A stretch of 14,028 bases of DNA from a virus. The notes below the pieces were generated by a model. That model saw only the letters and a list, made by a program, of their open reading frames with translations, had not been told where the DNA came from and searched no databases. Positions within the stretch are counted from its first letter, which is position 1, and the number at the start of each line of letters is the position of its first letter. Shown here piece after piece: positions 1 to 14,024 of the stretch. The stretch is from UHGV virus genome UHGV-0127916; one strand, written 5' to 3'. The translations under genes were made by a program, and so were the position numbers.

Positions 1-2
1 CG

Positions 3-173
3 GAGCACGTCGTAGAGGCATTTAAAAAAGGTGAGCTAACACGACATCAAGTAGTAATGAATCGTAATATGGCAAGGAGTCGAGGTTATCCAGAGCGAGC
101 AGCTTGCTTCAATGAAGCACTCAAGATTATTGATGAATTAAGAAAAAATGAAAAAGAATCTGAAACAGAGTAA
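3..173 (+). CDS. 3' end of an upstream gene (partial, hypothetical protein)
   Basis: An open frame in codon phase 3,6,9... runs from the window edge to TAA at 171-173 (...ALKIIDELRKNEKESETE*). The RBS of the next gene follows 8 nt later. It is missing from the ORF track because no start codon lies in the window. Confidence 0.35.
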   Translation, partial: EHVVEAFKKGELTRHQVVMNRNMARSRGYPERAACFNEALKIIDELRKNEKESETE

Positions 174-192
174 AGAATAGAAGGAGAAAACT

Positions 193-360
193 ATGAGCGA
201 AACTAAGAAACCAATTCCGCGCACTTACCTACACGTTGACCCTGAAATCTTCAAGGTTTTATTTGCTGAAGCCAAGAAAAGGCAAATTATGGTCAGTGAT
301 TTGATGTTAGAAATCATTACTGAAGCAGCAGAGAACATCAAACAAAAAAAGGGTAAGTGA
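193..360 (+). CDS. Small ribbon-helix-helix (Arc/CopG-like) DNA-binding protein, 55 aa
   Basis: ATG at 193 is preceded by AAGGAG (181-186) and the frame runs 55 codons to TGA at 358-360. The pattern RTYLHVDPEIFKVLFAEAKKRQIMVSDLMLEIITEAAE fits the strand-helix-helix layout of RHH repressors. This is a pattern-based call only. Confidence 0.5.
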   Translation: MSETKKPIPRTYLHVDPEIFKVLFAEAKKRQIMVSDLMLEIITEAAENIKQKKGK

Positions 361-411
361 TCCTCATTCACTTTAGTAGCGCATTAAGCGTGATTTATAA
401 GGAGATTTTTA

Positions 412-1065
412 ATGATTAATGAAGAACAATTTGTAAAAGTTCCTATGTGGATTCTAAAAATAAGCCAAGTAAACGGGCATAAATTTACAGATAGTGCTAA
501 AAACCTTTACTGCTATCTGAAAGGGTTTGATCGTGCATTTCCCTCTTACGCTAAGATAGGCGATGTTTTTGGCATAACACCAAGAGCAGCAGAGGAAAGG
601 GTTAAGAAATTGCTCGAAATGGGATTAATTATAAAAGATGCACGACCAGGAAGTTCTAATGTCTATCAAGTGGTAGATATTCCACAAGAAGAAGCTAGAC
701 AAGAAGCCCAGACACAACAAGAAGCTACTGTTAAAGCTGTTCCTGATCCGCTTCCACCTACAGAAGATAATAAACAGCCTTCTTTTGATGTTCTTGATGA
801 TTGGGATGCGCCTTTGCCGTGGGAGACGGAAGAAACACCTGTTTCATCAAGTGAAAAGGTAGCTAATGATAATGAGGAGGATGTGTTAGAAAATTTTGCC
901 TCTCTTATCATCCAGGAGAAGAATACCAGAACAGGAGGAGCATCCTTTCTAGAATTTGCAACATCGTTAGCCTATAAGCACAGGTTAAAGCTACCAAATG
1001 GTATTGAGGCATATTTTGCTAAGAAACATCCCAAAGTATATGAAGACTTTGATATTCCATTTTAA
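412..1065 (+). CDS. HTH-domain protein with acidic C-terminal half; putative replication-initiator or regulator
   Basis: 217-aa ORF with AAGGAG at 399-404, 7 nt before the ATG. The N-terminal ~90 aa resemble winged-HTH domains of phage/plasmid Rep or regulator proteins; the rest is acidic and Pro-rich. The function is inferred. Confidence 0.75.
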   Translation: MINEEQFVKVPMWILKISQVNGHKFTDSAKNLYCYLKGFDRAFPSYAKIGDVFGITPRAAEERVKKLLEMGLIIKDARPGSSNVYQVVDIPQEEARQEAQTQQEATVKAVPDPLPPTEDNKQPSFDVLDDWDAPLPWETEETPVSSSEKVANDNEEDVLENFASLIIQEKNTRTGGASFLEFATSLAYKHRLKLPNGIEAYFAKKHPKVYEDFDIPF

Positions 1066-1076
1066 TAAGGAGGGTT

Positions 1077-1355
1077 ATGATTCAATATTTAGTAAAAAAT
1101 CAAGTAGACAGAATTCAGTGTAATGACACAGGAAAACGCATCTACGAAACACTTGCTTACCTCTATAAAGGAAAGCCAACACCGCTAAAATATAGCGATG
1201 TGTTACATCGAGCAGCTTGCTCTGAAGATGGTTTAAAATTCTGGCTTAGACAGCTATCAAATTTCGGTGTTATAGAGATTAAAGAATTATCTTTCTCTAC
1301 ATTCAATCTCAAAAGACTAGATAAAGAAATAGAATTCATCTATTCCACTCTCTAA
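1077..1355 (+). CDS. Hypothetical protein, 92 aa
   Basis: ORF with AGGAGG at 1068-1073 just upstream of the ATG, starting 12 nt after the previous stop. No recognisable motif. Confidence 0.7.
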   Translation: MIQYLVKNQVDRIQCNDTGKRIYETLAYLYKGKPTPLKYSDVLHRAACSEDGLKFWLRQLSNFGVIEIKELSFSTFNLKRLDKEIEFIYSTL

Positions 1356-1487
1356 AATCTCTCTATGTAATTAAAATATAAAAGGAAAACATTATTATGA
1401 TAGTAGCTATGTATTGGTTATTGTTCTTTATCACGTTAGAAGCATATTTCGGGGTGTTTTCCTTTAAAAGAAAAGGAAAAGTAAATA

Positions 1488-1898
1488 ATGGCAAAAAGAA
1501 AAAACAACGTTGTTAAGAAAATCGGTGATTCAGCTTCTCTTCTAAGTAAACCTAAATCTATTCTAAGACGCAAAGACTTTAAAGAGCTAGTTACGCTCAC
1601 CAAGCAAAATAGCGCCCCTGGCGAATGGAAAACAGAGATCATAGAACATTCTCCCTCTGTGCCTTGTGGAGATGAATTTAACGCCTTACAAGAAATCTTA
1701 TCTTCAACACCTGGCGTATTCTGGAAACCTAGAAAAAGAAAAGAGTATATCGTTGATAGCTCTGATTTACGCAAATACCAGATTTTAGGATTTGAAGATT
1801 ATAATCACTACGTCGGTTATCTCGCCACCAATGGCCTAAATAATTTAGTCCCTGAATTCCAAATTTTAGATGGTGCTGATCACTATGGAGACTTTTAA
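1488..1898 (+). CDS. Hypothetical protein, 136 aa (basic N-terminus)
   Basis: ORF with AAGGA at 1473-1477. It is in the same orientation and tightly packed with its neighbours, and its stop at 1896-1898 abuts the next start. Confidence 0.65.
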   Translation: MAKRKNNVVKKIGDSASLLSKPKSILRRKDFKELVTLTKQNSAPGEWKTEIIEHSPSVPCGDEFNALQEILSSTPGVFWKPRKRKEYIVDSSDLRKYQILGFEDYNHYVGYLATNGLNNLVPEFQILDGADHYGDF

Positions 1899-1899
1899 T

Positions 1900-2238
1900 A
1901 TGAACAAAAACACGTATGACACAATTTACTCACTAATTAATTATTATGAGGATGATTACCTCCTGCCTTTAAACCGTGCTGAACTTGAAGCATACAGAGA
2001 AAACACGCCAGCGGCACTCAATGAGGCGTTTAAACACTGGGATTTAGCTGTGAATGCCTTGGAGCAACTCTCTAAGCGTGTAGAGATGCTCTGTAAGCGT
2101 GAGAACGCATATCTAACAGCGGATCAGATATGGGAGCTATCAAACTGGATAGAAGATATTGAATCTGATGTTCGCTATGTGGGAGATGGCCTTATCGAAC
2201 TAGCTCAACGCTTAGGCGCTGCTATCACAGAAGAATAA
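1900..2238 (+). CDS. Hypothetical small acidic helical protein, 112 aa
   Basis: I prefer ATG at 1900 (MNKNTYD...) over the ORF-track start at 1870, because GGAG at 1888-1891 sits 8 nt upstream and the previous gene ends at 1898. The protein has about 24 Asp/Glu against 11 Lys/Arg. Confidence 0.65.
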   Translation: MNKNTYDTIYSLINYYEDDYLLPLNRAELEAYRENTPAALNEAFKHWDLAVNALEQLSKRVEMLCKRENAYLTADQIWELSNWIEDIESDVRYVGDGLIELAQRLGAAITEE

Positions 2239-2267
2239 AAAAAGCAACAAAAAAGTTGTAAAATATC

Positions 2268-2296
2268 TTGACATTTCATATATTGTATGTTAATAT
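2268..2296 (+). promoter_or_regulatory. Near-consensus sigma70 promoter: TTGACA, 17-nt spacer, TGn-TAATAT (extended -10)
   Basis: TTGACA at 2268-2273, a 17-nt spacer, TG at 2288-2289 and TAATAT at 2291-2296, with an A-rich tract upstream. It lies in a 350-bp non-coding gap and faces the downstream operon. Confidence 0.6.
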
Positions 2297-2496
2297 AATT
2301 ATATAGGGGTGATTATTTTTCCTTTATTGGTTCGATATTAAAAATTCTTCTTGTCGTTAAAGGGGAGTAAAATCTCCGCTCCCCGCTTCTCCTCCTTAAG
2401 TAAATACTGTGTCATTATTACCTCTTTTTTCCTTTGTTATGCATACATCTTGGAGTATGCATAACATAGGGTAATTACATAGGTACAAGTTAATAA

Positions 2497-2526
2497 AAGG
2501 CGGCTTTAAATGCTGCCTTTTATTTT
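2497..2526 (+). terminator. Intrinsic terminator inside the leader, about 200 nt downstream of the promoter
   Basis: 8-bp stem AAGGCGGC / GCTGCCTT with one G-U pair and a 7-nt loop TTTAAAT, followed by TTATTTT. Confidence 0.5.
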
Positions 2527-2588
2527 GCCCGTTATGCAACTTAAAAGTTGTATTTCTTACTTTAAACAAGGTAACAAGGTTTATATAA

Positions 2589-2801
2589 ATGTTGTTCTTA
2601 AATGATAAAGAGCAAATCATCAAGTATAAAGATGAAATGCTGAAAATTAATCCACAAATTACCGAAATGGTAGCTAAATACGCTGGGTGTTCTGTAGAGG
2701 AAGTAGAAAGATGTGTTGAAAAATATTTTTCTCCTTCTTCTCCGTCTACACCTTCCCTTAATGAATTAATCAAATTAAAAGCTAAGGAGATTACTAAATG
2801 A
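2589..2801 (+). CDS. Hypothetical protein, 70 aa
   Basis: ORF whose stop overlaps the next start as ATGA (2798-2801), suggesting translational coupling. Its own RBS is weak (AAGG about 11 nt upstream). Confidence 0.5.
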   Translation: MLFLNDKEQIIKYKDEMLKINPQITEMVAKYAGCSVEEVERCVEKYFSPSSPSTPSLNELIKLKAKEITK

Positions 2802-3160
2802 TTATTGATTTAGACACTCTGTTTCCAGTTCGAAAGACTTTCACAGATATTGTAAGTTATTGTACTGATCCGTTTGCCTCTGTAGAAAGCAAGGTTTTTG
2901 CTTCTCTTCCTGCTGATGTTGAATGCGGAGACTTGATCACCAGCACTGGCGCTAAATATGAATCAGGAGATGATATTTATGTTGTTATGAGTGAATTTGT
3001 AACGGCTGGAGAAAACAAGCCTGTAGATGTGCTACGTAGCAATGCTGGCCTTGTATGCATCAAAGCTGATGCGCTGAATGCTGTAAGTGAAGCAGCAAAA
3101 ACAGCACTAATTAAAAAAGGCTTTCAGCTTGAAGGCTTCCATTCTGTTTTCACTTCTTAA
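2798..3160 (+). CDS. Hypothetical acidic protein, 120 aa
   Basis: AAGGAG at 2784-2789, 8 nt before the ATG; coupled to the upstream ORF. Confidence 0.7.
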   Translation: MIIDLDTLFPVRKTFTDIVSYCTDPFASVESKVFASLPADVECGDLITSTGAKYESGDDIYVVMSEFVTAGENKPVDVLRSNAGLVCIKADALNAVSEAAKTALIKKGFQLEGFHSVFTS

Positions 3161-3178
3161 TAAAAGGAATAATAATAA

Positions 3179-4207
3179 ATGATTCTAGGTAATGATTACG
3201 TTGATTTAGCTCCTCTGTTCTCTGCGCATAGCACTAGAAACTATCTGCTTTCTACTCTTGATTTTACGGATTCTGTAGGGGTCACATCTCATAAAGTAGC
3301 TGTTTCCCAGCTTGTCGAAAGCAACGAATCTCTCTTTAACAAAGAGACAAGCCGTTTTAGTTCTGAACACAATGTTACTAAGCGAGAACAAGGTAAAGAA
3401 TGGCTGATTGAAATCCCGTATTTTCTTCGTGAAGATGTGATCCGTCCTTCTGATGTTCAAGGCAAGCGTAAGCCTGGCACTGATTTTCAGGAAACACTTA
3501 CTGATATCTATGCTGACTATGTTGCTAAACACCACGTAGCGTATCAGCGTACAAAAGAGAGCGTATTGGCTGCATCTCTGTTTAGTGGTCGCACCTACAC
3601 GCCTAAAACTGATGATGTTCTTATCGAGTGGGGCAAGCTGTTTAACGTATCAGCTATGAAAGCCACTGTGAACGCTTCCAGCACTGACACCACGAAGATT
3701 TTTAAAGAATTTGATCAGATTGCTACTGACATTATCGAAAAAGCACAAAGCCAGGCGGCTGCTGTAGAGCGTATTGTTGTTTTCTGTAAACCGGAAGCCT
3801 TCTCTGCAATTCGATTCTCTGCTGGTATGGCAAACGCATTCCAGTATGTAAGCCCACTGGAAGAAGGGAACGTTGTGTATCAGCGTCGTGACCTGCTGCC
3901 AGGAGTGACAGCGTTCACTATTCCAGGAACTAACATTGATGTTATTAAACTGGTAGATCCGCTACACCTGGCACATATGACCGCAGACGCTGTAGCTGTG
4001 CCTAAATTCGCTAAAGGCTCTAACGTATATCAGAACATCTACGGGGCTGCTTCCAGCACCTTTGAACTGATTAATGCCGCTCCTGCTGAGGTGTATAGCT
4101 ATAGCTATGAATCTTCTCGTGGTGATGCTGTTAACGTTGTTACAGAGAATAGCCAGATGGTTGTAAACCACGGTGTAGGCTTCTCCGTTCAAATCACTGT
4201 TAAATAA
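3179..4207 (+). CDS. Hypothetical protein, 342 aa; possibly a major structural (capsid-like) protein
   Basis: Long ORF with an RBS and no nucleotide-binding or catalytic motif that I can see. It is followed directly by a very strong intrinsic terminator, as highly expressed structural genes often are. The structural assignment is speculative. Confidence 0.8.
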   Translation: MILGNDYVDLAPLFSAHSTRNYLLSTLDFTDSVGVTSHKVAVSQLVESNESLFNKETSRFSSEHNVTKREQGKEWLIEIPYFLREDVIRPSDVQGKRKPGTDFQETLTDIYADYVAKHHVAYQRTKESVLAASLFSGRTYTPKTDDVLIEWGKLFNVSAMKATVNASSTDTTKIFKEFDQIATDIIEKAQSQAAAVERIVVFCKPEAFSAIRFSAGMANAFQYVSPLEEGNVVYQRRDLLPGVTAFTIPGTNIDVIKLVDPLHLAHMTADAVAVPKFAKGSNVYQNIYGAASSTFELINAAPAEVYSYSYESSRGDAVNVVTENSQMVVNHGVGFSVQITVK

Positions 4208-4225
4208 TATTTTAACGTGTAATAG

Positions 4226-4260
4226 AGGCGTGGCGTGTATTCACGCTTCGCCTTTTTTTT
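4226..4260 (+). terminator. Strong rho-independent terminator (attenuator) after the 342-aa gene
   Basis: GC-rich stem of about 11 bp (GGCGTGGCGTG / CACGCTTCGCC, one mismatch, one G-U) with loop TATT, followed by T8 at 4253-4260. Confidence 0.75.
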
Positions 4261-4293
4261 ATTTATTTTTAAATTTTGAGAGGTGATTAAAAT

Positions 4294-4497
4294 ATGGAAG
4301 TGATTTTGAAATCAAAAAATGGGGTGCACGTACATTTAGATGCTAATGATTCTAGAGGCTTGTTAAATCTGAAATATCTATGTTCTCTCTTAGATGTGCC
4401 CTATGAAGGCGTAAAAGCCCGTATGTTCAGATTAAACGAGAGTATTGATCAGGCTCTACACCATTTCTTAAGTAAAGAAGGTGGTAAAAATGATTAA
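4294..4497 (+). CDS. Hypothetical protein, 67 aa
   Basis: ORF with AGGTGA at 4281-4286, 7 nt before the ATG. Confidence 0.55.
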   Translation: MEVILKSKNGVHVHLDANDSRGLLNLKYLCSLLDVPYEGVKARMFRLNESIDQALHHFLSKEGGKND

Positions 4498-4513
4498 TAT
4501 AAGGGGATTTTAA

Positions 4514-6343
4514 ATGTTAGAAATTAACACTTCTAAAATTAAGAACACAGTTACATTTAGTGTAGATAAAGACAGCTTGAAAAAAGCGAAAGACTCTATT
4601 ACAAGCCTAAAAGAATTCACTGATAATATCAAGCCAGCTAAACTGAGGTTTGATAATGTCACTAAAGGCTATAAGAAAGCACAAAGCGAAGTAGACAAGA
4701 TTGCTCAACAGAAAGCTAAAACAGAAAAGCAAAATCAAAGAGCACAAGCTGCCGCAGCAAGAGCACAGGCAAGGCAACAGCAACAAATAGCAGCACGTAA
4801 AGAGAAAGCAGAATTAAAGCTCCTCGATGTTTCAAGCTCTATCAGTGCAATGCACCGCCTCTCTGTAGCGGAACAATACAAAGCTATTGCACAGGCTAGA
4901 GAGATAGCGAAACAATACGAACAAGGCGCTATCTCGCTTGCACGTATGAATAGCCAGATGAAACGCTTACAACAGCAACAACGTAAGATTAATGGCAACA
5001 GAAAAGCTCAATTAGCCCCCGTTAAGGGAGGATCAGGGAATTCCGCCACGATGGGCGCTCTGTTATTTGGAGGCGCTACGGCGGCGGCTGGCGTGATGGC
5101 TGTAAGTAAAGCCTCTGAATTTATGGCTAACAGCTTTGCTAACGCAGAGACACAAGGAGAGCTAATCCAACGTGCAAGGCTTGGCGGTGTAGACGTTAAC
5201 CAGATGTATAACATTACAGAATGGGCGTATAGAAACGGCGTTGACTCTATGATGGGTGATCAAGGGGCTAGGAAATACCTGGATCAGATGAAAGATGTTA
5301 GGGAACGTGCCGCAAAATCCTACAGTGAAGCTGAATTGGTGAAAGATAAGAAAACCGGAAAATCTGAATGGAAAGGCGGTGATAACGCTATTAATGAACT
5401 TCTAAACATCGGAGTTATTAACAAAAGCGACCTTAAAAAATTTGCTGATAATCCAGCCGGATTAATTTCTAAGGCTGTTAATGGAATGATGAAAAAAGGG
5501 TTTTCAGACTCCCAAATTGGACAACGTTTAGAAGACCTGGGCGATGATTTGATGCTTACATCAAAATATTGGCAACGTTCCGTTAAAGATGTACAAGAAA
5601 GTATTAATCAGCAAAAAGCCTCTGGAAAATGGCTAACAGAAACACAGCAAGAATCTATCGTTAAATTCAGAGAGCTAAACAGACAGCTTTCACAGCTTTC
5701 TGATGCAAGACAAGTAGCATTCGTAGACGGCTTTATGAAATCTCTTGATCCAAAAGTAACGGAAGAGTTTATGAAAAACCTTTCTAATCTCACTCCGTAT
5801 TTTACGAAGCTAGGAGAAGCTACAGGAAGTCTCTTTGAAGCTATTATGAAGATTGTAAACTGGTTTAATCGTAATGATGATAAGACAGATGCTATTCAGA
5901 AAAATATGGGTGATGCACCGCCATTAAGCAATGAAGGAATGAAGCAGAATCTTTCTAAGCTCGTTCCTGACCAATATAAAGGCGCTGGCACTGCAACAAC
6001 TACACCTGATAATAGTCATTCTCTCTTTAACACGATTAAGGGATTGCTTTTCGATGATAATTCTTCTGTGTCAGATGTAAAAATGTCAGTCAGCGAAGCA
6101 CCGATAACCAATCTCAAACAGGGGGCTTTAAATAATCTTGCAATGACAACTCCGGCTTATAATTTATCTCCTGTATTCAATCTGAATCCTACATTTGAAG
6201 TGGTAACGGAGGTTCCGCTTACTATTAATTCTGACACATCCAGATTAAGCGATTATGTGGATTTTACAGCGAGAGCAAGTCGGGATAGCTTCTTGAAATC
6301 ATTAACATTAACCAGCTTGTCAGGACAATCTAACGGCGGGTAA
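4514..6343 (+). CDS. Hypothetical 609-aa protein: N-terminal Ala/Gln-rich coiled coil, Gly/Ala-rich hydrophobic segment, large C-terminal domain (tape-measure- or ejection-protein-like)
   Basis: AAGGGG at 4501-4506, 7 nt before the ATG. Features read from the translation: QNQRAQAAAARAQARQQQQIAARKEK, then GGSGNSATMGALLFGGATAAAGVMAVS. No enzymatic motif recognised. Confidence 0.8.
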   Translation: MLEINTSKIKNTVTFSVDKDSLKKAKDSITSLKEFTDNIKPAKLRFDNVTKGYKKAQSEVDKIAQQKAKTEKQNQRAQAAAARAQARQQQQIAARKEKAELKLLDVSSSISAMHRLSVAEQYKAIAQAREIAKQYEQGAISLARMNSQMKRLQQQQRKINGNRKAQLAPVKGGSGNSATMGALLFGGATAAAGVMAVSKASEFMANSFANAETQGELIQRARLGGVDVNQMYNITEWAYRNGVDSMMGDQGARKYLDQMKDVRERAAKSYSEAELVKDKKTGKSEWKGGDNAINELLNIGVINKSDLKKFADNPAGLISKAVNGMMKKGFSDSQIGQRLEDLGDDLMLTSKYWQRSVKDVQESINQQKASGKWLTETQQESIVKFRELNRQLSQLSDARQVAFVDGFMKSLDPKVTEEFMKNLSNLTPYFTKLGEATGSLFEAIMKIVNWFNRNDDKTDAIQKNMGDAPPLSNEGMKQNLSKLVPDQYKGAGTATTTPDNSHSLFNTIKGLLFDDNSSVSDVKMSVSEAPITNLKQGALNNLAMTTPAYNLSPVFNLNPTFEVVTEVPLTINSDTSRLSDYVDFTARASRDSFLKSLTLTSLSGQSNGG

Positions 6344-6376
6344 TTCCCGCCATAACATTACAAGGAAATTATTATT

Positions 6377-7090
6377 ATGGCGACCGCCGGGATTTTAACC
6401 ATACGTGCAGCAAATACTCCAGAACAACACGTTCAAGCGGTTTATAACGCGGAACAAGATATAAACTCTACAAAAAACGAAAATAGCAAAGCCAATAAAA
6501 CAAAAGGAGAAAATGGATTTGCTATTGTTACCAGTGGGCTGGCATCTTCTGGTAATGACGTTTATGAAAATTATATGGCACTGGCCTTTGACAGTGTAGA
6601 CGATGTAAACGTAAAACGTCAAGCAGATGTTACTAGCTACCCCGTAGAGAATGGTGCTACTGTATCGGATCACGTTCAAATTAAAAACAATAAGTTTGCT
6701 CTTAAGGGGCGTATCACTGAAACACCGATTAAAAGCGATCCTGGCTTGTTAAAGAGTGCAGGGGTGAACGGGAACAGAAGATCATTAGCTATAGACTACC
6801 TGAATCAGATTATGGACAGTAGACAGCCTTTTCTTCTTGTTACAGAAAATAAAACTTTTGAGAACGTTGTTTTAACAGGCATCGAATACACAGAAGAGGC
6901 AAGCGAATCCCTGGTATTTGATCTTAGCTTTGAGCAGATCAGGCTCGTTTCGTATGGCACAGTAAACACTGTAGCTATCAAAACACAGCCATCTAAGAAC
7001 ATCGGGGCTAATATGAAAAAACGTGTTAACACTGAAAAATCAAGTAGTGAAGGTGAAGACACTATTACGCCTGCCTTTAAACAGGAATAG
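6377..7090 (+). CDS. Hypothetical protein, 237 aa
   Basis: ORF with AAGGA at 6362-6366; last gene of the rightward array, ending 80 nt before the convergent integrase gene. Confidence 0.75.
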   Translation: MATAGILTIRAANTPEQHVQAVYNAEQDINSTKNENSKANKTKGENGFAIVTSGLASSGNDVYENYMALAFDSVDDVNVKRQADVTSYPVENGATVSDHVQIKNNKFALKGRITETPIKSDPGLLKSAGVNGNRRSLAIDYLNQIMDSRQPFLLVTENKTFENVVLTGIEYTEEASESLVFDLSFEQIRLVSYGTVNTVAIKTQPSKNIGANMKKRVNTEKSSSEGEDTITPAFKQE

Positions 7091-7131
7091 CCGTAAACGC
7101 CTCTAAAACACTCTGTAACGATGTAATTATA

Positions 7132-7164
7132 AAAGAGGCTACCAATCTATGTTGAAGCCTCTTT
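7132..7164. terminator. Putative bidirectional terminator between the convergent operon and the integrase gene
   Basis: 9-bp stem AAAGAGGCT / AGCCTCTTT with a 15-nt loop, in the 80-bp gap between the stops at 7090 (+) and 7172 (-). The loop is large and the U-tract weak. Confidence 0.4.
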
Positions 7165-7171
7165 ATTGCGT

Positions 7172-8443
7172 CTATGGCGTTGTTTTACGCCTTAAATTTG
7201 ATTTTTTATTGATTGATAAGCCTTTCTCTATTTCAGGGTAGCGTAGAAGCTCAATATAGTTTTTAAGCTCTACTGGAGAAGCTGCATTCTTGCTATATGT
7301 GCGGAATGTCTCTGTATTGCCGCGTGTATGGCCCAGGAGAAGGGCGATCCTGTCTTCTGGAATTTGATTTCGATCAAGAAGCTGTGCTACTCCGTGTCTC
7401 AGAGAATGAAACACCTTCCTTTCTGTTCCCTTTTCCCCTAAAGCCTTTCGTTTAGCTCTTGTAAATCTCTGCGTGTGCCACGTGGAACGTTTACCATCAG
7501 CACGCTCTGTAATGCTGGCGTGATAGAACAAAAAGCCATTATGAGGCTTTTCACGAAGAGATAACACCAATGGAGTGATAAGGCTATGCACAGGCACAAG
7601 ACGTGCCGCAGCTTTCGTTTTTCCCTGTGTGATTTCAAAACACAGCACACCTTCGATCTCTTTCACATCGTCTATTGTGAGACTTGCTATCTCATTGATC
7701 CGCATACCTGTATACATTCCGATCAGTGTTATATTTTGCATTTCTTCTTCATCAGCCAGCATTGAGAACACTTTTGCGAGTTCATCATTGCTAAAGGCTT
7801 CATAATTCACCTTGCTACTTTTAGCTTCAAGGCCGTGACCTCGCCAAGGGTTATCTTGTGGTGCATCGTGGTAGCGGTTACGAGCAAGATCCCAAATCTG
7901 GGCTAATGCACTAATGTAGTTTTGTATTGTTTGTGGTGCTTTCTCATTTTTTAGGTTATCTAACCAGCTAGTAACAATAGTTCGGTTAACGTCACGAAGC
8001 TGAACATCGCGTTTATTCAGATGTTCTAAGAGCACCTCTACGGCTTTGTTTGTCTTTGATAGCGTAGTTAGCTTGCGCTTCTCGCTAAACTGGAGAATGT
8101 ACTGATCCCGCATATTTAAAAGAGAAGGGCAGCCAATAGAAGAATCATTAAATGATTCAGATACTTGAAATGCATATGTTCCAGCTTTCCGTAGTTCTGT
8201 AATAATTTGCTCGATCTTCGATGTTTTCTCACGTTGAGGCTTTAGCTTGTTACGTAGTTTTATCCATTCCAGCGCCACCGCATCACGGAACAACCGTGCT
8301 TCTCGAATATCTCTTGTGCCTGTGCTTTTAACGTAGCTACACCGCCCACCAAATAGATGACGCATATACTTAGGTATAGCGATCCTTACCAGATAGTTTC
8401 CGCAAGAATCTGAAATTAAATAACGATCTCTCTTGAAACTCAT
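7172..8443 (-). CDS. int: Tyrosine-type site-specific integrase, 423 aa
   Basis: The C-terminal half shows the tyrosine recombinase catalytic pattern: Arg in TGMRINE, HSLRH (H-x-x-R), LLGHTRGN and the Tyr in FRTYSK. It lies directly beside the tRNA-derived att core. Confidence 0.9.
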   Translation of the reverse strand: MSFKRDRYLISDSCGNYLVRIAIPKYMRHLFGGRCSYVKSTGTRDIREARLFRDAVALEWIKLRNKLKPQREKTSKIEQIITELRKAGTYAFQVSESFNDSSIGCPSLLNMRDQYILQFSEKRKLTTLSKTNKAVEVLLEHLNKRDVQLRDVNRTIVTSWLDNLKNEKAPQTIQNYISALAQIWDLARNRYHDAPQDNPWRGHGLEAKSSKVNYEAFSNDELAKVFSMLADEEEMQNITLIGMYTGMRINEIASLTIDDVKEIEGVLCFEITQGKTKAAARLVPVHSLITPLVLSLREKPHNGFLFYHASITERADGKRSTWHTQRFTRAKRKALGEKGTERKVFHSLRHGVAQLLDRNQIPEDRIALLLGHTRGNTETFRTYSKNAASPVELKNYIELLRYPEIEKGLSINKKSNLRRKTTP

Positions 8444-8564
8444 ACAAACCCCGGCTATTTTGTCAGGGCTTTTGCACTTGATAGTGTACAGTGTGAAGTG
8501 TCGATGTGTTGTTAGTTTTGCTTTTGATTCAAAGCATTACAGGAGCTTGCTAGGCAAGCGAACG

Positions 8565-8607
8565 ACCGTAGAAATACGTGCCGGTTCGAGTCCGGCCTTC
8601 GGCACCA
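8565..8607 (+). other. 3' fragment of a tRNA-Leu gene (leuX-like); attR-type core, not an intact tRNA
   Basis: ACCGTAGAAATACGTGCCGGTTCGAGTCCGGCCTTCGGCACCA contains a canonical T-arm (GCCGG / TTCGAGT / CCGGC), the acceptor 3' strand CTTCGGC, discriminator A and CCA. No complementary GCCGAAG 5' acceptor strand occurs within about 120 nt upstream. As I recall it, this matches the 3' end of enterobacterial tRNA-Leu(CAA). Confidence 0.6.
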
Positions 8608-8624
8608 CATCGTATGCAAATCGA

Positions 8625-8647
8625 GTCGCTCAAGGGCGGCTTTTTTT
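8625..8647 (+). terminator. Intrinsic terminator 17 nt after the tRNA 3' end (orphaned tRNA terminator)
   Basis: Stem GTCGC / GCGGC (one G-U pair) with loop TCAAGG, followed by T7 at 8641-8647. Confidence 0.5.
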
Positions 8648-8831
8648 GTGTCTGGGATCCGTTAGTTACCTATCTTTCTCGCTATTTTAACTCTCTCAGG
8701 GCTAACCAATTCCAACCCATCGCAAACGAAAAATGTTGGTACAGGCGTTGGTATTTTCGGTTCGATATTAATTTGTATTAGCTCAGTCCTGATCTGACAG
8801 CTATCTGCCAGATCAGGTTCGGATTAATACA

Positions 8832-11800
8832 TTATATCTGCCCGCCTACACCTTTAAACTTCTCAATAAACGCGACGATCTTCTGGAAAACCGTCTGTTT
8901 TTTCGTCTTATATTGCGGATTTAACGGACTGAGTTTTGGCAATGTCTCGTTTAATTCCGTGCCATTTTCGGTGGCGTATTCACGTTTTAAAGACGTGCGA
9001 ATATAGCGTTTCGCCGCCTCTTCATTGAGATTTTCTTCTTTGATCAATGCTGCTGCTTCACGTTGCTGTTCACGTTGAGCAAAGGTAAAAAACGCGTCAA
9101 TGATGCTGGCTTTATCCGGCAAATCATCCAGGTTCGTTTGCTGAATAAAATCGACCACCAGACCCTCTTTCGCACGGTTCCCAAGGCTTGAACGAATTAA
9201 GCGTTTGACCTCTTCGGTCATTTCGCCCTTACCTTTGTTTTGTCTGTTGTGTTCGAAAATAAGTCCAAGGATATAATCCAGGTTTATTTCCTGAGACTTC
9301 AGCAAATCGACCTCAAAAACAACGTCATCCCAGTCAGTGGTTGATTTTTCTTTTTTCTCGGCTTCTTTCTCACGGCGCTGCCAGTCACGAATATCGTTAT
9401 AGGCAGAACGATAATCCTGAATCTTGCGAGCAGCAGGGAGACGAATTGTTTGCAATTCAGCGAGCTTTTCATCATCCACATAATGTTCTGCTTTGAATTT
9501 TTCTACCGCAACAGGATCGCTAAGATCGATTTGTTGCAGGGCTTTCAGCGTGGCAAATTCATCATAGTTTTGCAGGATGTTCTCGGCACGCAGGTATTCA
9601 CCAAACAGTTTAACGAAGTCTTTCTTCTCTTTTTCACTTTCAATACTGGCAGGGTCAGGGAACCGTTGTTCCAGTTCTGAAACTACTGTCATAAAGCCGC
9701 GTTTAGCTTCACCGGTGGTAGCATCAGTAAAGCCTTCCATATACTCTGCATAACTCTTTTCTAACACCACATTTTTGGTGTTTTTGTCACCAAACAGCGT
9801 TATGGCATCAATAGTTGAGCGTTCCAGATCCCGAAAAGTGACGATGTTACCGAAGGTTTTCGTAGCGTCATAAATGCGGTTGGTGCGGGAAAATGCCTGC
9901 ATCAGGCCGTGAAAACGCAGGTTTTTATCAACGAATAGCGTGTTCAATGTTGGAGCATCGAATCCGGTTAAAAACATCCCCACAACGATTAACAAGTCAA
10001 CATCCTGATTTTTAACCCGCTGAGCCAGGTCCCGATAGTAGTTCTGAAACCCCTTGCTATCAGTGCTGAAATTCATTTGAAAATGTTCGTTATACTCACG
10101 AATAGCGGCATCCAGAAACTCTTTAGCACTGCTGTCCATTGCACTGGTATCAAAAGTTTCATCGGAAACTTCACCAATGGCATTTTGTTCTTCATTAGCG
10201 GCAAAGGAGAAGATTGTCGCAACACGTAGTGGTTTATAGGTAGCAGATTTATTAGCGGCTTCCTCTTGTAACCGTTTAAACGTCGCGTAATAGGCTTTCG
10301 CGGCATCCACGCTGCTCACTGCCAGCATGGCATTAAAACCTTTGGAGCCGGGGTAAGTACGGTGGGTCTTCTGGCGGAAGTTGTTCAGGATATATTGCGT
10401 GATTTCCTGAATACGCATGGGATGAAGAAACGCCTGCTGATTTTCAGCCGCACTCAGTTTTTTCTCGTCAGTTTCTGTCTCTAAAGACTTAAACTGTGGC
10501 CGCACATCGTTGTAGTCCACCTTGAATTTGAGCACTTTTTCATCACGGATCGCATCGGTAATCACATACGAATGCAATTCACGGCCAAATACGCTGGCAG
10601 TCGTTTCTGAGCCTAAAGCGTTTTCCGGGAAAATAGGGGTACCGGTAAAACCAAACTGATAATAGCGTTTGAATTTCTTCTTCAGGTTTTTCTGCGCTTC
10701 TCCAAACTGGCTGCGGTGGCATTCATCAAATATAAACACCACTTGCTGATTGTATACAGGCAGGTCGCTTTCTGCTTTCATCAGGTTATTAAGTTTCTGA
10801 ATAGTGGTGACGATAATTTTGTTATCGTCCTTATCCAGATTTCGTTTTAGACCTGCGGTATTTTCCGAGCCGTTGACGCTGTCTGGCGAAAAACGCTGAT
10901 ATTCCTTCATGGTCTGGTAATCGAGGTCTTTCCTGTCGACCACAAAGAAAACTTTATCAATAAAGTCCAGTTCTGTTGCCAGCCGCGCGGCTTTAAAGCT
11001 GGTGAGGGTTTTACCAGAACCGGTAGTGTGCCATATAAAGCCACCGCTTTCGGGGTTAGACCAGTTTTTCGCTTTATAGGAGCTGTTGATTTTCCATAAG
11101 ATTCGTTCGGTAGCTGCAATCTGGTACGGTCGCATCACCAGTAGTGTCTGGCTACTGTCAAACACGCTGTAGTTCACCAGAACATTAAGCAGGGTATGTT
11201 TCTGGAAAAAGGTAGCGGTAAAGTCTTTGAGGTCTTTTATCAGCGTGTTGTCTGATTTCGCCCAGTTCATGGTGAAGTCAAAACTGTTTTTATCGCGCTT
11301 TGTGGTGTTGGCAAAATAACGGGTATCTGTGCCGTTAGAAATGACAAACAGTTGCAGATACTTAAACAGGGAATTTTCGCTGTTAAAACTCTCTTTACTG
11401 TAACGATGTATCTGGTTAAAGGCCTCACGAATCGCCACGCCGCGCTTTTTCAGTTCGATTTGTACCAGTGGTAAGCCATTAACCAGGATCGTGACGTCAT
11501 AACGGTTAGCATGAGAACCCGCCTGTTCAAACTGCTGGATAATCTGCACCTTATTGCGCATGAGATTCTTTTTATCTATCAGATAGATGTTCTCAAGACG
11601 CTCGTCATCAAAAATAAAGTCGCAAATATAGTCGATATGGATTTTACGGGTCTTATCCAGAATGCCATCGCTCGGGTTATCCAGATACTGCTCCGTGAAA
11701 CGCCGCCACTCGCTGTCATTAAACACCACACCATTGAGGCTCTGAAGCTGTTCCCGAACGTTGGCCAGCATCGCTGACTGTGATTTTACGGGTATAAATT

Positions 11801-11948
11801 CATAGCCCTGATTTTGCAGGTCCTGAATCAGTTCACGTTCCAGGTCCGATTCGCTCTGGTAGCTGTCGCCTGTTGGCTCAGCTTTGATGTACTTATCAAG
11901 AACGATAAAGTTATTGGATTCAGCAATGGTGTGTGTCTGATGAGTCAT
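8832..11948 (-). CDS. hsdR: Type I restriction enzyme R subunit (HsdR), 1038 aa; type IC/EcoR124-like by recollection
   Basis: PD-(D/E)xK nuclease motif (D...VQIELKK), helicase motif I TTGSGKT and motif II FIFDECH. The length and the N-terminus [14 protein letters not shown] match my recollection of EcoR124I HsdR. RBS AAGGA precedes the ATG. Confidence 0.95.
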
Positions 11949-12069
11949 AGCGCATCCTTTGTGCCGTCTGGCAAGGACCGGAAGGGGGGTAATGGTGACT
12001 TCCGGCGCGTAAAAAATAGTCTATATACTGACCGGGCGTTAAGGTGGCCCGATCGGTAGCAATGGTCAA

Positions 12070-12594
12070 TTAATTACTGACAGTTTCAGGTTTCGGGAAA
12101 CTGAACAGTAAATCACGGTAGTATTCGTATTGTTTCTGGCGCAACTCGATTTCACGCGGAAGACCTTCAGTGATGGAGTTGGTCAGGGTGTCGAATTTAT
12201 CGAGTATTTCGACAATGCGAGCTTGCCAGGTGAGTGGCGGTACAGGGATTGGGTATTTCATTATATCCTCTTTACTGCCACGCGGCATTTTTGCTCCTTT
12301 AGCATGCTGCATGTTGTATTCAAAGAATTTGTCATCTGCCAAAATCTGATATAGATATCTGGTATTTATTGAGCTATCTATGCAACGAATAACCAATACA
12401 TCGCCATTTGTTCCACCGATACAATCTGCTTGCCAAATTTTTTTCAAATATGGGCGGATATTCCCAATCAATATATCGTTAGGTATAAACTCCGTTAATT
12501 TACCTGATGTCGGTACATGATTAGATAATGATTTTCCTGCTCTGTTTTGCAGCAGATTATCTACGCCAACATAGATGATATGACCTTTATATAC
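12070..12594 (-). pseudogene. hsdS: Truncated hsdS: C-terminal ~174 codons (TRD2 plus conserved C-terminal helix) of a type I specificity subunit
   Basis: The frame is open from 12594 down to the stop at 12070-12072. The translation ...NDILIGNIRPYLKKIW...YPIPVPPLTWQARIVEILDKF...LRQKQYEYYRDLLFSF carries HsdS target-recognition-domain and C-terminal motifs. The N-terminal half is missing; the frame hits a stop at 12595-12597 inside the IS-proximal sequence. The ORF-track start at 12471 is a TTG. Confidence 0.75.
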
Positions 12595-14024
12595 TCACTA
12601 TAGCATTGGTGGGATATTCCAGAGGAGGTCATCATGCATTCGGAAAATATTGCGGCTTACGTCGGGCTGGATGTGCATAAAGAAACGTTGGCGGTTGCTA
12701 TTGCTGCACCTGAACGGCTTGGCGAAGTTCGTTATTATGGTACGATTAACAACGAAGCCCAGGCTGTACGTCGATTATTTCAGAAATTGCAGGGACTTTA
12801 CGGAAACATTCTTTCCTGCTATGAGGCTGGCCCCTGTGGTTTTGGGCTATATCATCAACTCACAGCGATGAATATAAAATGCCAGGTTATTGCCCCTTCC
12901 CGCATACCAAAATCACCGACAGACAGAATCAAAAATGATCATCGGGACGCAATTTCTCTCGCCAGGTTACTGCGGGCTGGAGAACTTACCCCTGTCTGGA
13001 TCCCTGACCTGACTCATGAAGCTATGCGGGATCTAATCAGAGCCCGTGCAGCAGCTAAACGAGACAGCAGAGTTGCCCGACAGCGAATTCTGAGCATGCT
13101 ATTGCGAACAGACAAACATTATGCAGGAAAGCACTGGACAGGAAAACATCGAACCTGGTTAGCTAATCAATCATTTAGTCAGCCATCTCAACAGATTGCT
13201 TTTCAACACTATTGTCAAAGTCTGGAGCAGATTGAAGATCGCATACTTCAACTCGACCAGGAAATATCTCGCCTGTTACCTGAGTGGTCTCTGTGCAATC
13301 TGGTCTGCCAGTTGCAGGCTCTTAAAGGTGTTGGTCAGCTAATTGCAATAACTCTGGTTGCTGAACTGGGTGATTTTTCGCGATTTTCCAATCCCAAACA
13401 GCTCATGGCTTTTCTGGGACTGGTGCCAGGTGAATATTCCAGTGGAAACAGTATTCGTCCCAGAGGAATAACAAAAGTTGGAAACAGCGAACTGAGACGT
13501 CTGCTTTACGAAGCCGCCTGGTCTTATCGTACACCTGCAAAAGTTGGGGCATGGCTTATATATTACCGACCGGACTCTGTAACACAATATTCCAAAGATA
13601 TTGCATGGAAAGCTCAACAACGATTGTGTTCTCGTTACCGAAGTCTGACAGCAAAAGGGAAAAAATCACAAGTAGCCATTACGGCGGTGGCTCGTGAGTT
13701 GACTGGATTTATGTGGGATATTGCACTTGCTGCCCAATCATCATTCAGTCAGCAGAAGCAAAATTAAACCCTGAAGCAGTCAGACACGGAATGAGTGATC
13801 CTCGTAAAAGAATTCAGGGAAGCCAGAATGCGCTAATACCTGCACGTAGAAAGAGGCCAGCTCACTGCGTAAATCGTCATGGGGCTAAAATCCCCGAATA
13901 AGAGTTTGTAAAATCCAAGATACAGTCTGACTGTTTCAGGTTCTTTAATCCGCGATATAACGAAGCTCCCGGAGCTGCGTAAGGTCTTTTTGGGCTTAAT
14001 ATTTGACAAAGGTCATAAGAATTC
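12572..14024 (+). mobile_element. IS110-family insertion sequence (IS1111-like layout); boundaries approximate
   Basis: Contains the DEDD transposase gene. A 10-bp inverted repeat TATGACCTTT (12579-12588) / AAAGGTCATA (14008-14017) brackets it. It has a short 5' end and a non-coding 3' end of at least 240 bp, and it interrupts hsdS. Confidence 0.6.
12634..13767 (+). CDS. IS110-family transposase/recombinase (DEDD RuvC-like N-domain plus C-terminal Tnp domain), 377 aa
   Basis: N-terminus YVGLDVHKETLAVAI and C-terminal LKGVGQLIAITLVAELGDFSRFSNPKQLMAFLGLVPGEYSSGNSIRPRGITKVGNSELRRLLYEAAW are hallmark IS110-family segments. GAGGAGG RBS lies 5 nt before the ATG. Confidence 0.95.
   Translation: MHSENIAAYVGLDVHKETLAVAIAAPERLGEVRYYGTINNEAQAVRRLFQKLQGLYGNILSCYEAGPCGFGLYHQLTAMNIKCQVIAPSRIPKSPTDRIKNDHRDAISLARLLRAGELTPVWIPDLTHEAMRDLIRARAAAKRDSRVARQRILSMLLRTDKHYAGKHWTGKHRTWLANQSFSQPSQQIAFQHYCQSLEQIEDRILQLDQEISRLLPEWSLCNLVCQLQALKGVGQLIAITLVAELGDFSRFSNPKQLMAFLGLVPGEYSSGNSIRPRGITKVGNSELRRLLYEAAWSYRTPAKVGAWLIYYRPDSVTQYSKDIAWKAQQRLCSRYRSLTAKGKKSQVAITAVARELTGFMWDIALAAQSSFSQQKQN

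Follow-up and report, generated by a model that had tools for sequence, protein, structure and literature searches.

The window analyzed here is a 14,028-nucleotide stretch of the virus genome UHGV-0127916. Its first part is the right-hand portion (8.7 kb) of an integrated island; hsdR, an hsdS fragment, and a gene for an IS110-family transposase come after it. The island is at least 8.7 kb in size; a complete copy, L001, extends further left than the window, by ~2.9 kb of non-coding DNA rich in iterons. The genes and regions of the island are as follows.

193-360: small RHH-like protein, assigned by reading of the sequence
412-1065: replication-initiator-like protein, rep (Pfam, PHROGs)
Between rep and the gap: p92, p136, and p122, three small island proteins with no family match
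1870-2238, + strand: p122, last gene of the upstream (early) operon
2239-2588: the gap, that is, the cassette region between p122 and the late operon
2589-7090, + strand: late operon encoding p70, p120, capsid, p67, tape measure, and Dit (Pfam, PHROGs)
3179-4207, + strand: gpE-like major capsid protein (Pfam, PHROGs)
4514-6343, + strand: tape-measure-like protein (Pfam, PHROGs)
6377-7090, + strand: Dit-like protein (Pfam, PHROGs)
7172-8443, strand opposite to the operon: tyrosine integrase

The only products recognized in the island were the integrase and the replication-initiator-like, gpE-like capsid, tape-measure-like, and Dit-like proteins. From this gene content, we infer that the island is phage-satellite-like. 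Known satellites carry marker genes: psu, sid, and delta for P4; alpA, pri-rep, and packaging genes for PICI; and portal, protease, and small terminase genes for capsid-forming PICI. No marker gene of P4-like, PICI, capsid-forming PICI, PLE, or PICMI satellites was recognized in the island. Two links to phages were found. The first is phage muut, a phi92-like Justusliebigvirus, which matches positions 181-765 of the window (p55 and the part of rep for its N terminus) at 99% identity; the second is the island Dit gene, which shares ~75% identity with tail genes of Vequintavirus. Among 5,426 complete E. coli genomes, 307 contained the sequence of the gap (92-99.7% identity, almost never annotated); KK19-02, NC101, and MRE162 are examples of carrier strains. 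Relatives of the island are spread across the Enterobacterales. No circular (excised) copies of the island were detected among the metagenome contigs searched. A literature search returned nothing on this island family, nor on satellites of rV5-like or phi92-like phages, and the family appears to be undescribed.

The gap contains a compact cassette. Its elements are listed here, along with a second terminator located within the operon.

2244-2259: palindrome O1, GCAAC-AAAAAA-GTTGT, with its end 9 bp before the -35 hexamer
2268-2296, + strand: predicted sigma-70 promoter with an extended -10, from the window scan and conservation in five subgroups
2303-2527, + strand: predicted non-coding leader RNA of ~225 nt, both ends placed from the promoter and the terminator
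2362-2368 with 2378-2384, + strand: hairpin GGGGAGU/GCUCCCC, -12.2 kcal/mol
2385-2400, + strand: CU-rich single-stranded segment GCUUCUCCUCCUUAAG
2430-2471, + strand: large hairpin with a perfect 12-bp stem, GUUAUGCAUACA/GUAUGCAUAAC
2492-2527, + strand: predicted intrinsic terminator with a 13-bp stem, a 7-nt loop, and a U tract
2534-2553: palindrome O2, AUGCAACUUAAAAGUUGUAU, located past the terminator but ahead of the ribosome-binding site
4225-4262, + strand: second strong predicted intrinsic terminator, directly after the capsid gene

The promoter consists of the -35 hexamer TTGACA (2268-2273), which begins 30 bp after the p122 stop codon, a 17-nt spacer, a TG at 2288-2289, and the -10 hexamer TAATAT (2291-2296). 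This site ranked first in the scan of the window, with 10/12 matches plus the TG. Three other sites also score 10/12, but they lack the TG and a perfect -35, and a perfect -35 combined with an extended -10 is found at this single position. Note that promoter-like matches as a class are not enriched in the window (23 found vs 28 expected), so the case for a real promoter rests on its conservation. The same type of promoter was found directly after the stop codon of a p122-like gene in all five diverged subgroups described below, with TTGACA or TTGCAT, a 17-nt spacer (18 nt at a few loci), usually a TGn, and then the -10. A conserved (T)ATAGGG(G/T) lies a few bases 3' of the -10 in all five subgroups; transcription is predicted to start near A2303, and the RNA would begin with AUAGGGG. 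A search of IMG/VR with the promoter and 5'-end motif returned only islands plus unrelated AT-rich contexts without a -35. An earlier note on this DNA had called this promoter near-perfect, and the analysis confirms the observation. By sequence, it qualifies as a sigma-70 promoter with an extended -10, and its activity is predicted.

The terminator hairpin is built of the arms AAUAAAAGGCGGC (2492-2504) and GCUGCCUUUUAUU (2512-2524), and the U tract, UUUUAUUUU, covers 2518-2526. With a folding energy of -18.3 kcal/mol (z = -4.0), it has the make-up of an intrinsic (Rho-independent) terminator of predicted efficiency; its previous placement at 2497-2526 was right within a few bases. Termination is predicted at ~2524-2528, which would yield an RNA of ~225 nt. 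From there, 62-67 nt separate the end of the terminator from the ATG of p70 at 2589, in line with the ~60 nt first estimated. The scan of the + strand between the terminator and this ATG detected no promoter-like site, in agreement with the earlier remark that no separate promoter is visible there.

Searching genomes, IMG/VR, and metagenomes with a capsid alignment yielded 109 related loci. The synteny of the operon is kept in 110 loci, while the rep and int modules vary. Five groups were defined by capsid identity to the window: group A (91% or more), group A' (77%), group C (72-73%), group B (62-66%), and group D (55-57%). A long gap devoid of ORFs separates the operon from the preceding gene in every group, and the length of the ORF-free leader ranges from 220 to 950 nt among the five subgroups. 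The distance from the start site to the ATG is ~285 nt in group A, 390-440 nt in D, 565-690 nt in B, ~825 nt in A', and ~945 nt in C.

Of 57 distinct relatives, 53 have a hairpin with a U tract 25-105 nt upstream of the first ATG; in the remaining four, the hairpin is retained and the U tract is weaker. These counts come from hairpin detection on each sequence separately, which was adopted after RNAalifold misaligned the terminator variants; applied to the 3' 220 nt of 24 group B leaders, RNAalifold recovered only partial helices. A looser terminator detector had a background of ~2 per kb, and only compact hairpins were counted as evidence. Among 31 distinct group A sequences, the terminator stem is invariant and variation is confined to the loop. 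Between groups, the stems are unrelated (GGCGGC/GCUGCC, GCCGGAAG/CUUCCGG, GGGGC/GCCCC, GGCGAC/GUCGCC, and GCCGG(G)G/CCGGC), so it is the structure and the place of the terminator that are conserved. At the sequence level, the layout of predicted promoter, leader, terminator, and capsid/tail operon is conserved far beyond chance.

The gap had been described as having no credible ORF, and variation within group A bears this out. In the 31 distinct variants, the leader has indels of 1, 2, 9, and 17 nt, all confined to linkers; a protein-coding gene in the gap is ruled out, as indels that are not multiples of three break the candidate ORFs. Two such candidates were considered and rejected, a 37-aa ORF with a TTG start (2351-2464) and a 125-aa ORF on the minus strand (2396-2773), both of which span linkers carrying indels among these variants. 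No leader peptide is conserved among the group A variants.

RNA folding, put forward as a check in the earlier note, was then applied to the leader, and the whole of it folds well beyond shuffled controls (-68.9 kcal/mol, z = -5.6). The GGGGAG...CTCCCC hairpin at 2362-2384, already noticed by eye, is invariant in group A except for one variant with a 1-nt deletion at the stem/loop junction. An alternative pairing, between this region and the downstream CU-rich segment, is predicted to form a weaker helix (-8.4 kcal/mol). The large hairpin (-21.3 kcal/mol, z = -6.2) has a single variant in group A, an A to G change in the 3' arm that gives a G.U pair on the + strand; in general, where leader stems of this group carry substitutions, the + strand RNA still pairs, through G.U or A-U. 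At the 5' end, the leaders of all subgroups share a conserved stem-loop domain. In group B, its loop, AUYGAAUC, is invariant, while the stem occurs as AAGU/ACUU, AACGU/ACGUU, or AAUGU/ACAUU. In every leader, CTCC occurs 4-9 times vs 0-2 times for GGAG. The G.U and A-U changes in stems, the excess of CTCC, and the varied stems of group B speak for selection on the + strand RNA and not on the DNA alone. The terminator adds further + strand signatures, as it holds a G.U pair and its U tract is better on that strand. The pyrimidine richness attributed to the transcript proved to be real but modest (56%).

Within the CU-rich segment, CCUCCUUA (2391-2398) corresponds to the 3' end of 16S rRNA and is hence anti-Shine-Dalgarno-like. 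Leaders of four groups (A, A', C, and D), and some of those of group B, contain a CUCCU(U)AAG motif, located in loops or linkers and often in hairpin loops. Such a motif would suit a leader that is mainly a free-standing small RNA gene, the product of which acts in trans as a riboregulator. The anti-Shine-Dalgarno-like CUCCUUAAG would mask ribosome-binding sites of the island or of a helper, or the leader would titrate an RNA-binding protein, and transcription of the operon would rely on a promoter that depends on the helper and lies near O2, immediately past the terminator. A strong promoter, a 5' stem, stable hairpins, and a U-tailed terminator are the usual build of bacterial small RNAs, and the P4 CI RNA and the P1 c4 RNA are precedents for leader-derived regulatory RNAs. 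Also in its favor, group D has a T4-late-like TATAAATA just upstream of the Shine-Dalgarno sequence. However, RNAduplex pairing of the leaders with all translation-initiation regions of the island was no better than with shuffled controls. Rfam offered no family either: at E <= 1, the sole match in the window was a terminator-like chance hit at 4219-4296, no match was obtained at the gathering threshold on eight related loci, and the P4 CI and P1 c4 immunity-RNA models matched neither the window nor these eight relatives. In addition, the terminator-to-ATG interval contains no promoter motif conserved across subgroups, and the leaders diverge greatly in sequence and length, not the usual behavior of an RNA that has to base-pair with a fixed target. 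We consider this explanation unlikely. Of the phage genomes compared with the leader, only a single chance match was returned.

The leader could also be a self-contained, riboswitch-like attenuator, in which an antiterminator fold would be chosen by a ligand, a protein, or the translation of a leader peptide. Folding of the nascent transcript gave some substance to this idea, as the 5' flank of the terminator (2490-2503) can pair with the CU-rich 2386-2399, and the G-rich segment 2358-2367 has two alternative partners. The terminator is, however, ~15 kcal/mol more stable than this alternative, which the other subgroups do not conserve; the leader ORFs are broken by indels, and no Rfam riboswitch matched. 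A mechanism of this type seems very improbable to us.

The two palindromes point to a layer of control at the DNA level. The window has exactly two copies of GCAAC-N6-GTTG, at 2244-2258 and 2536-2550. In 24 representative islands, the relaxed form YAAC-N6-GTTR was found 33 times inside the late cassettes (1.93 per kb) vs 11 times in the ~229 kb outside them (0.048 per kb), a ~40-fold difference. Within the cassettes, it sits only at the promoter or after the terminator. The promoter-side copy, present in groups A, A', and B, lies either upstream of the -35 or in the spacer/-10 region, and in several subgroups O1 overlaps the spacer and the -10 region. Group D and one group B locus are without YAAC-N6-GTTR, as are the early promoters. 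O2 can also form a small hairpin at the RNA level; a G to A variant in group A makes its palindrome perfect and turns the RNA pair from G.U to A-U. Since the half-sites are conserved while 14 different spacers occur, a protein operator is favored over an RNA helix, and the O1/O2 palindrome is probably such an operator. A strict co-variation of the O1 and O2 spacers was considered and rejected; they are similar in group A, L030, and L091 and different elsewhere.

These palindromes allow a simpler, repressor-only model. A dimeric island protein bound to O1 and O2, possibly with looping of the DNA, would shut the promoter, and the terminator would be a mere insulator, there to block transcription arriving from the early operon and to cut leaky transcripts short. 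Once the promoter is derepressed, enough polymerase would get past the terminator, with no dedicated antiterminator. The strong enrichment of the palindrome pair at exactly two places, with conserved half-sites and free spacers, is what such a model predicts, and the position of O1 over the spacer and -10 in several subgroups is the classical one for a repressor. The model also accommodates the fact that family and structure searches found no antiterminator, and terminators after capsid genes are common stoichiometry devices. Several observations are harder to reconcile with it: the predicted terminators are strong (13 bp and a U tract before the operon, a hairpin and eight T after the capsid gene), group D keeps the promoter, leader, and terminator without the palindrome, the early promoter has a terminator but no palindrome, and leaders of up to 950 nt are difficult to explain as spacers. 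Repression alone is, in our view, a possible but not a likely account of the cassette.

Terminators are not confined to the start of the late operon. The second terminator has its hairpin at 4225-4254 and a folding energy of -19.5 kcal/mol, followed by eight T, and a GC-rich hairpin with T6-8 was found after the capsid gene in every subgroup. In the two relatives in which the early operon was examined, a group A island (L001, 2849-2985) and a group B island (L005, 3678-3876), this operon is preceded by TTGACA, 17-18 nt, a TGn-10, a leader of 70-100 nt, and a hairpin with a U tract. In L005, the promoters of the early and late cassettes are the two best of the element. All + strand genes of the island thus appear to lie behind terminators. 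Of note, the palindrome pair, the second terminator, and the early-operon cassette of these two relatives are features that the earlier note had not described.

The reading that we prefer, with about as much confidence as doubt, is that the cassette acts as a transcriptional gate for the capsid/tail operon of the satellite-like island. Transcription would start near 2303 from the near-consensus promoter, and RNA polymerase would make an untranslated, highly structured leader and stop at the terminator at ~2524-2528. This stop would release the ~225-nt RNA and leave p70 through Dit unexpressed. The operon would be expressed only once polymerase resists termination and passes both the pre-operon and the post-capsid terminators. 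We infer this read-through control from the anatomy of the locus. Since several terminators would have to be passed (one per operon and one after the capsid gene), a processive mechanism is favored. A dimeric protein probably binding O1 at the promoter and O2 after the terminator would add the DNA-level layer.

The first trigger would most likely come from an infecting helper phage, given that the early operon is gated likewise in the two relatives examined. Based on the genes they share with the island, phi92-like or rV5-like myoviruses are the candidate helpers. Alternatively, the factor may be an island protein made by leaky read-through. Searches of Pfam, PHROGs, and NCBIfam with all small island proteins revealed no antiterminator or late activator family, and in particular no match to the Q, N, Ogr, and delta families, which agrees with the earlier observation that no Q/Ogr-like protein is encoded nearby. 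PDB profile searches with p122 and p136 gave no match. The p136 protein is the sole early protein conserved in all groups and has a K/R-rich N terminus with a KPRKRK motif; its AlphaFold model had no fold match. On the side of the helper, the study of phage rV5 (PMC3606486) describes sigma-70-like promoters, many of them with an extended -10, together with TggTAaAAtA as a late motif, and reports no late factors of the T4 type. This late motif is close to an extended -10 and is non-discriminating here.

A bolder version of the gate takes the leaders of 220-950 nt to be a new class of large structured RNA that senses helper infection and switches on processive antitermination at both operons. 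A helper or island protein would bind the 5' stem-loop of the nascent leader or its CUCCUUAAG loops, or the palindromes, and RNA polymerase would thereby become terminator-resistant at both island operons. Such a system would be unrelated to Q, N, put, or LoaP, and the freed leader may act in trans on translation. We rate this version as distinctly improbable.

If the gate works as proposed, it would explain how a small island stays silent in ~6% of sequenced E. coli. Both operons would be poised behind terminators and could be switched on within minutes of infection by a lytic myovirus, an induction logic distinct from the repressor/antirepressor and AlpA routes of PICIs and P4. It would also point to an antitermination factor, encoded either by the island or by rV5-like or phi92-like phages, two groups that find use in phage therapy although little is known of how they control transcription. 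With just five modules in a short space (operator, promoter, leader, terminator, operator), the cassette lends itself to testing and might serve as a phage-responsive genetic switch.

Among known systems, the pR'/6S/tR' region of lambda is the closest analogue in layout, a fit of architecture and not of family membership. As with pR', a strong, constitutive-type sigma-70 promoter lies directly after the last early gene; as with the 194-nt 6S RNA and tR', a short non-coding transcript would end at a strong terminator before the first structural gene. Further terminators are located inside the operon, as in the lambda late operon, and the spot in which a Q-binding element would be expected, at or beside the promoter, carries a DNA motif. 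The lambdoid late control suggested in the earlier note is partly supported, through the conserved layout. No Q-family protein was detected in the window by Pfam, PHROGs, or NCBIfam, and an antiterminator gene of the lambda Q, Q21, or Q82 families is absent next to the promoter. Inspection by eye of the initially transcribed region in the subgroup sequences found no consistent -10-like pause element after the start site; group A has a GATTAT at +9 to +14, with no equivalent in groups B and D. Unlike in lambda, the promoter-side motif is palindromic and recurs past the terminator, leaders of up to 950 nt occur in island relatives, a like cassette also precedes the early operon in the two relatives studied, and the element that carries the cassette is no lambdoid phage but a satellite-like island (at least 8.7 kb). 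What emerges appears to be a known kind of control in a new form, within an apparently undescribed island family.

The comparison with P4 immunity (PLE promoter and CI RNA) is also instructive. In both cases, a constitutive satellite promoter would fire into a non-coding leader that ends before the downstream operon, and the terminated or processed leader could itself regulate. Leader-RNA immunity of this kind had been suggested, and the context is indeed satellite-like; the leader, however, has no Rfam match of the c4/CI type, and seqA/seqB/seqC-type repeats pairing within the leader were not found. Moreover, in the island the gate would apply to the structural operon and not just to a replication operon.

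RNA that acts in cis to promote antitermination has a precedent in the conAn bipartite system of Gram-positive conjugative elements (PMC8191782). Like HK022 put RNA, EAR, and conAn, the cassette has a structured RNA right after the promoter and upstream of terminators and a long mobile-element operon, and the leaders of all subgroups share a conserved 5' stem-loop domain. No boxA/boxB-like pair was recognized in the leader. A purely cis-acting RNA would here mean constitutive read-through, which is hard to square with a silent integrated island if its promoter is not repressed.

Finally, the late promoters of P2 and P4 that respond to Ogr/delta activators share one feature with the cassette. 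They differ from it in that the island promoter has a consensus -35 and an extended -10, so an activator should be dispensable, and the island encodes neither Ogr/delta activators, as used for the P4 late genes, nor any zinc-finger activator. The shared feature is a dyad-symmetric element just upstream of the -35: O1 is centered near -51.5, and the Ogr/delta dyad, TGT-N12-ACA, which differs from O1 in sequence and spacing, lies at about -55.

The cassette lies within an integrated element, the island, that, judged by gene content, looks like a member of an undescribed phage-satellite family. Its genes encode an integrase and a replication initiator together with gpE-like capsid, tape-measure-like, and Dit-like proteins; genes for a portal, a protease, or a terminase are lacking. 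The island is carried by 307 of 5,426 complete E. coli genomes, and relatives were found in Citrobacter, Enterobacter, Klebsiella, Kluyvera, Buttiauxella, Scandinavium, and Cronobacter. The rep and int modules have been exchanged between copies. The island and its right-hand surroundings are as follows.

Window 1-8650: island (the complete copy in locus L001 spans ~1-11760)
Window 8580-8642: tRNA T-arm-like sequence, GCCGGACTCGAACCGGC, adjoining the integrase gene
Window 8832-13767: right of the island, the R subunit of a type I restriction system, then a truncated S subunit (12070-12471) and a transposase of the IS110 family (12634-13767)

The T-arm-like sequence is probably the remnant of an attachment site. 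ARAGORN called no tRNA there, and the identical sequence lies beside the integrase in L005, a relative from group B (subgroups A, A', C, B, and D are defined by capsid identity to the window, from closest to most diverged). Other group-A copies adjoin a tRNA gene, which we take to be thrW (contig ends begin with the tRNA 5' end). In the window, the insertion appears to have cut the type I specificity gene. At the other end, L001 extends to the left of the window with ~2.9 kb of non-coding DNA (L001 1-2985), in which several families of direct repeats, such as ATTACACAG, GATACCCCTATCAAAACT, CCTAGGAAATGAGTTCCTACCTA, and ACAGAATTCTGTTA, are densely packed. This region presumably serves as the origin and/or the packaging region.

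Regulatory elements and small proteins of the island are listed below.

L001 2849-2985 and L005 3678-3876: promoter cassette of the early operon, left of the window
Window 2244-2259 and 2534-2553: pair of YAAC-N6-GTTR-type palindromes, on either side of the promoter-leader-terminator cassette
Window 4225-4262: strong intrinsic terminator (hairpin and eight T), directly 3' of the capsid gene, within the operon
Window 1488-1898: p136, the sole early protein kept in all subgroups
Window 2589-2801: p70, with a helix-turn-helix-like stretch
Window 4294-4497: p67, with a helix-turn-helix-like stretch

In both L001 and L005, the early-operon cassette consists of TTGACA, a 17/18-nt spacer, and a TGn-10 element, followed by a leader of 70-100 nt and a terminator immediately 5' of the first gene. 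Since the early operon thus has a promoter, leader, and terminator of its own, the early and structural operons would, on this evidence, share one gating layout. Across the island family, YAAC-N6-GTTR is enriched ~40-fold at the two positions flanking the structural cassette, with conserved half-sites and free spacers; the pair are probably operators for a dimeric DNA-binding protein. The post-capsid terminator is kept in every subgroup and, in groups B and D, belongs to a larger structure with a conserved loop, AGCGCAA(A/U)U. A weak Rfam match to 'caiA' (4219-4296) corresponds to this terminator.

Leaders from groups A, A', C, and D and from part of group B contain CUCCU(U)AAG (window 2391-2398), in single-stranded or loop placement. 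This is the same sequence as the 16S rRNA 3' end (anti-Shine-Dalgarno), and GGAG is nearly missing from all leaders. A search for targets of the motif gave no convincing match.

Among the small proteins, p136 is a candidate regulator. Its N terminus is K/R-rich with an invariant KPRKRK-like motif, its AlphaFold model has a fold with no PDB match, and its 387 relatives, mostly from Klebsiella, are all annotated as hypothetical. The helix-turn-helix-like stretches of p70 and p67 resemble each other and are clearer in relatives (...LGITPTELKKQCE... and ...LGISNTAVRQRIF...); these proteins may be DNA-binding or packaging-specificity proteins.

Two island segments match lytic phages. Window 181-765, comprising the gene for the small protein p55 and the N-terminal part of rep, is 99% identical to two neighboring genes of phage muut (L111, 81027-81626), a phi92-like Justusliebigvirus. 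The Dit-like gene, over window 6407-6703, shares ~75% identity with a tail gene found in rV5-like phages (Vequintavirus). Phi92-like and rV5-like phages are candidate helpers or targets of the island.
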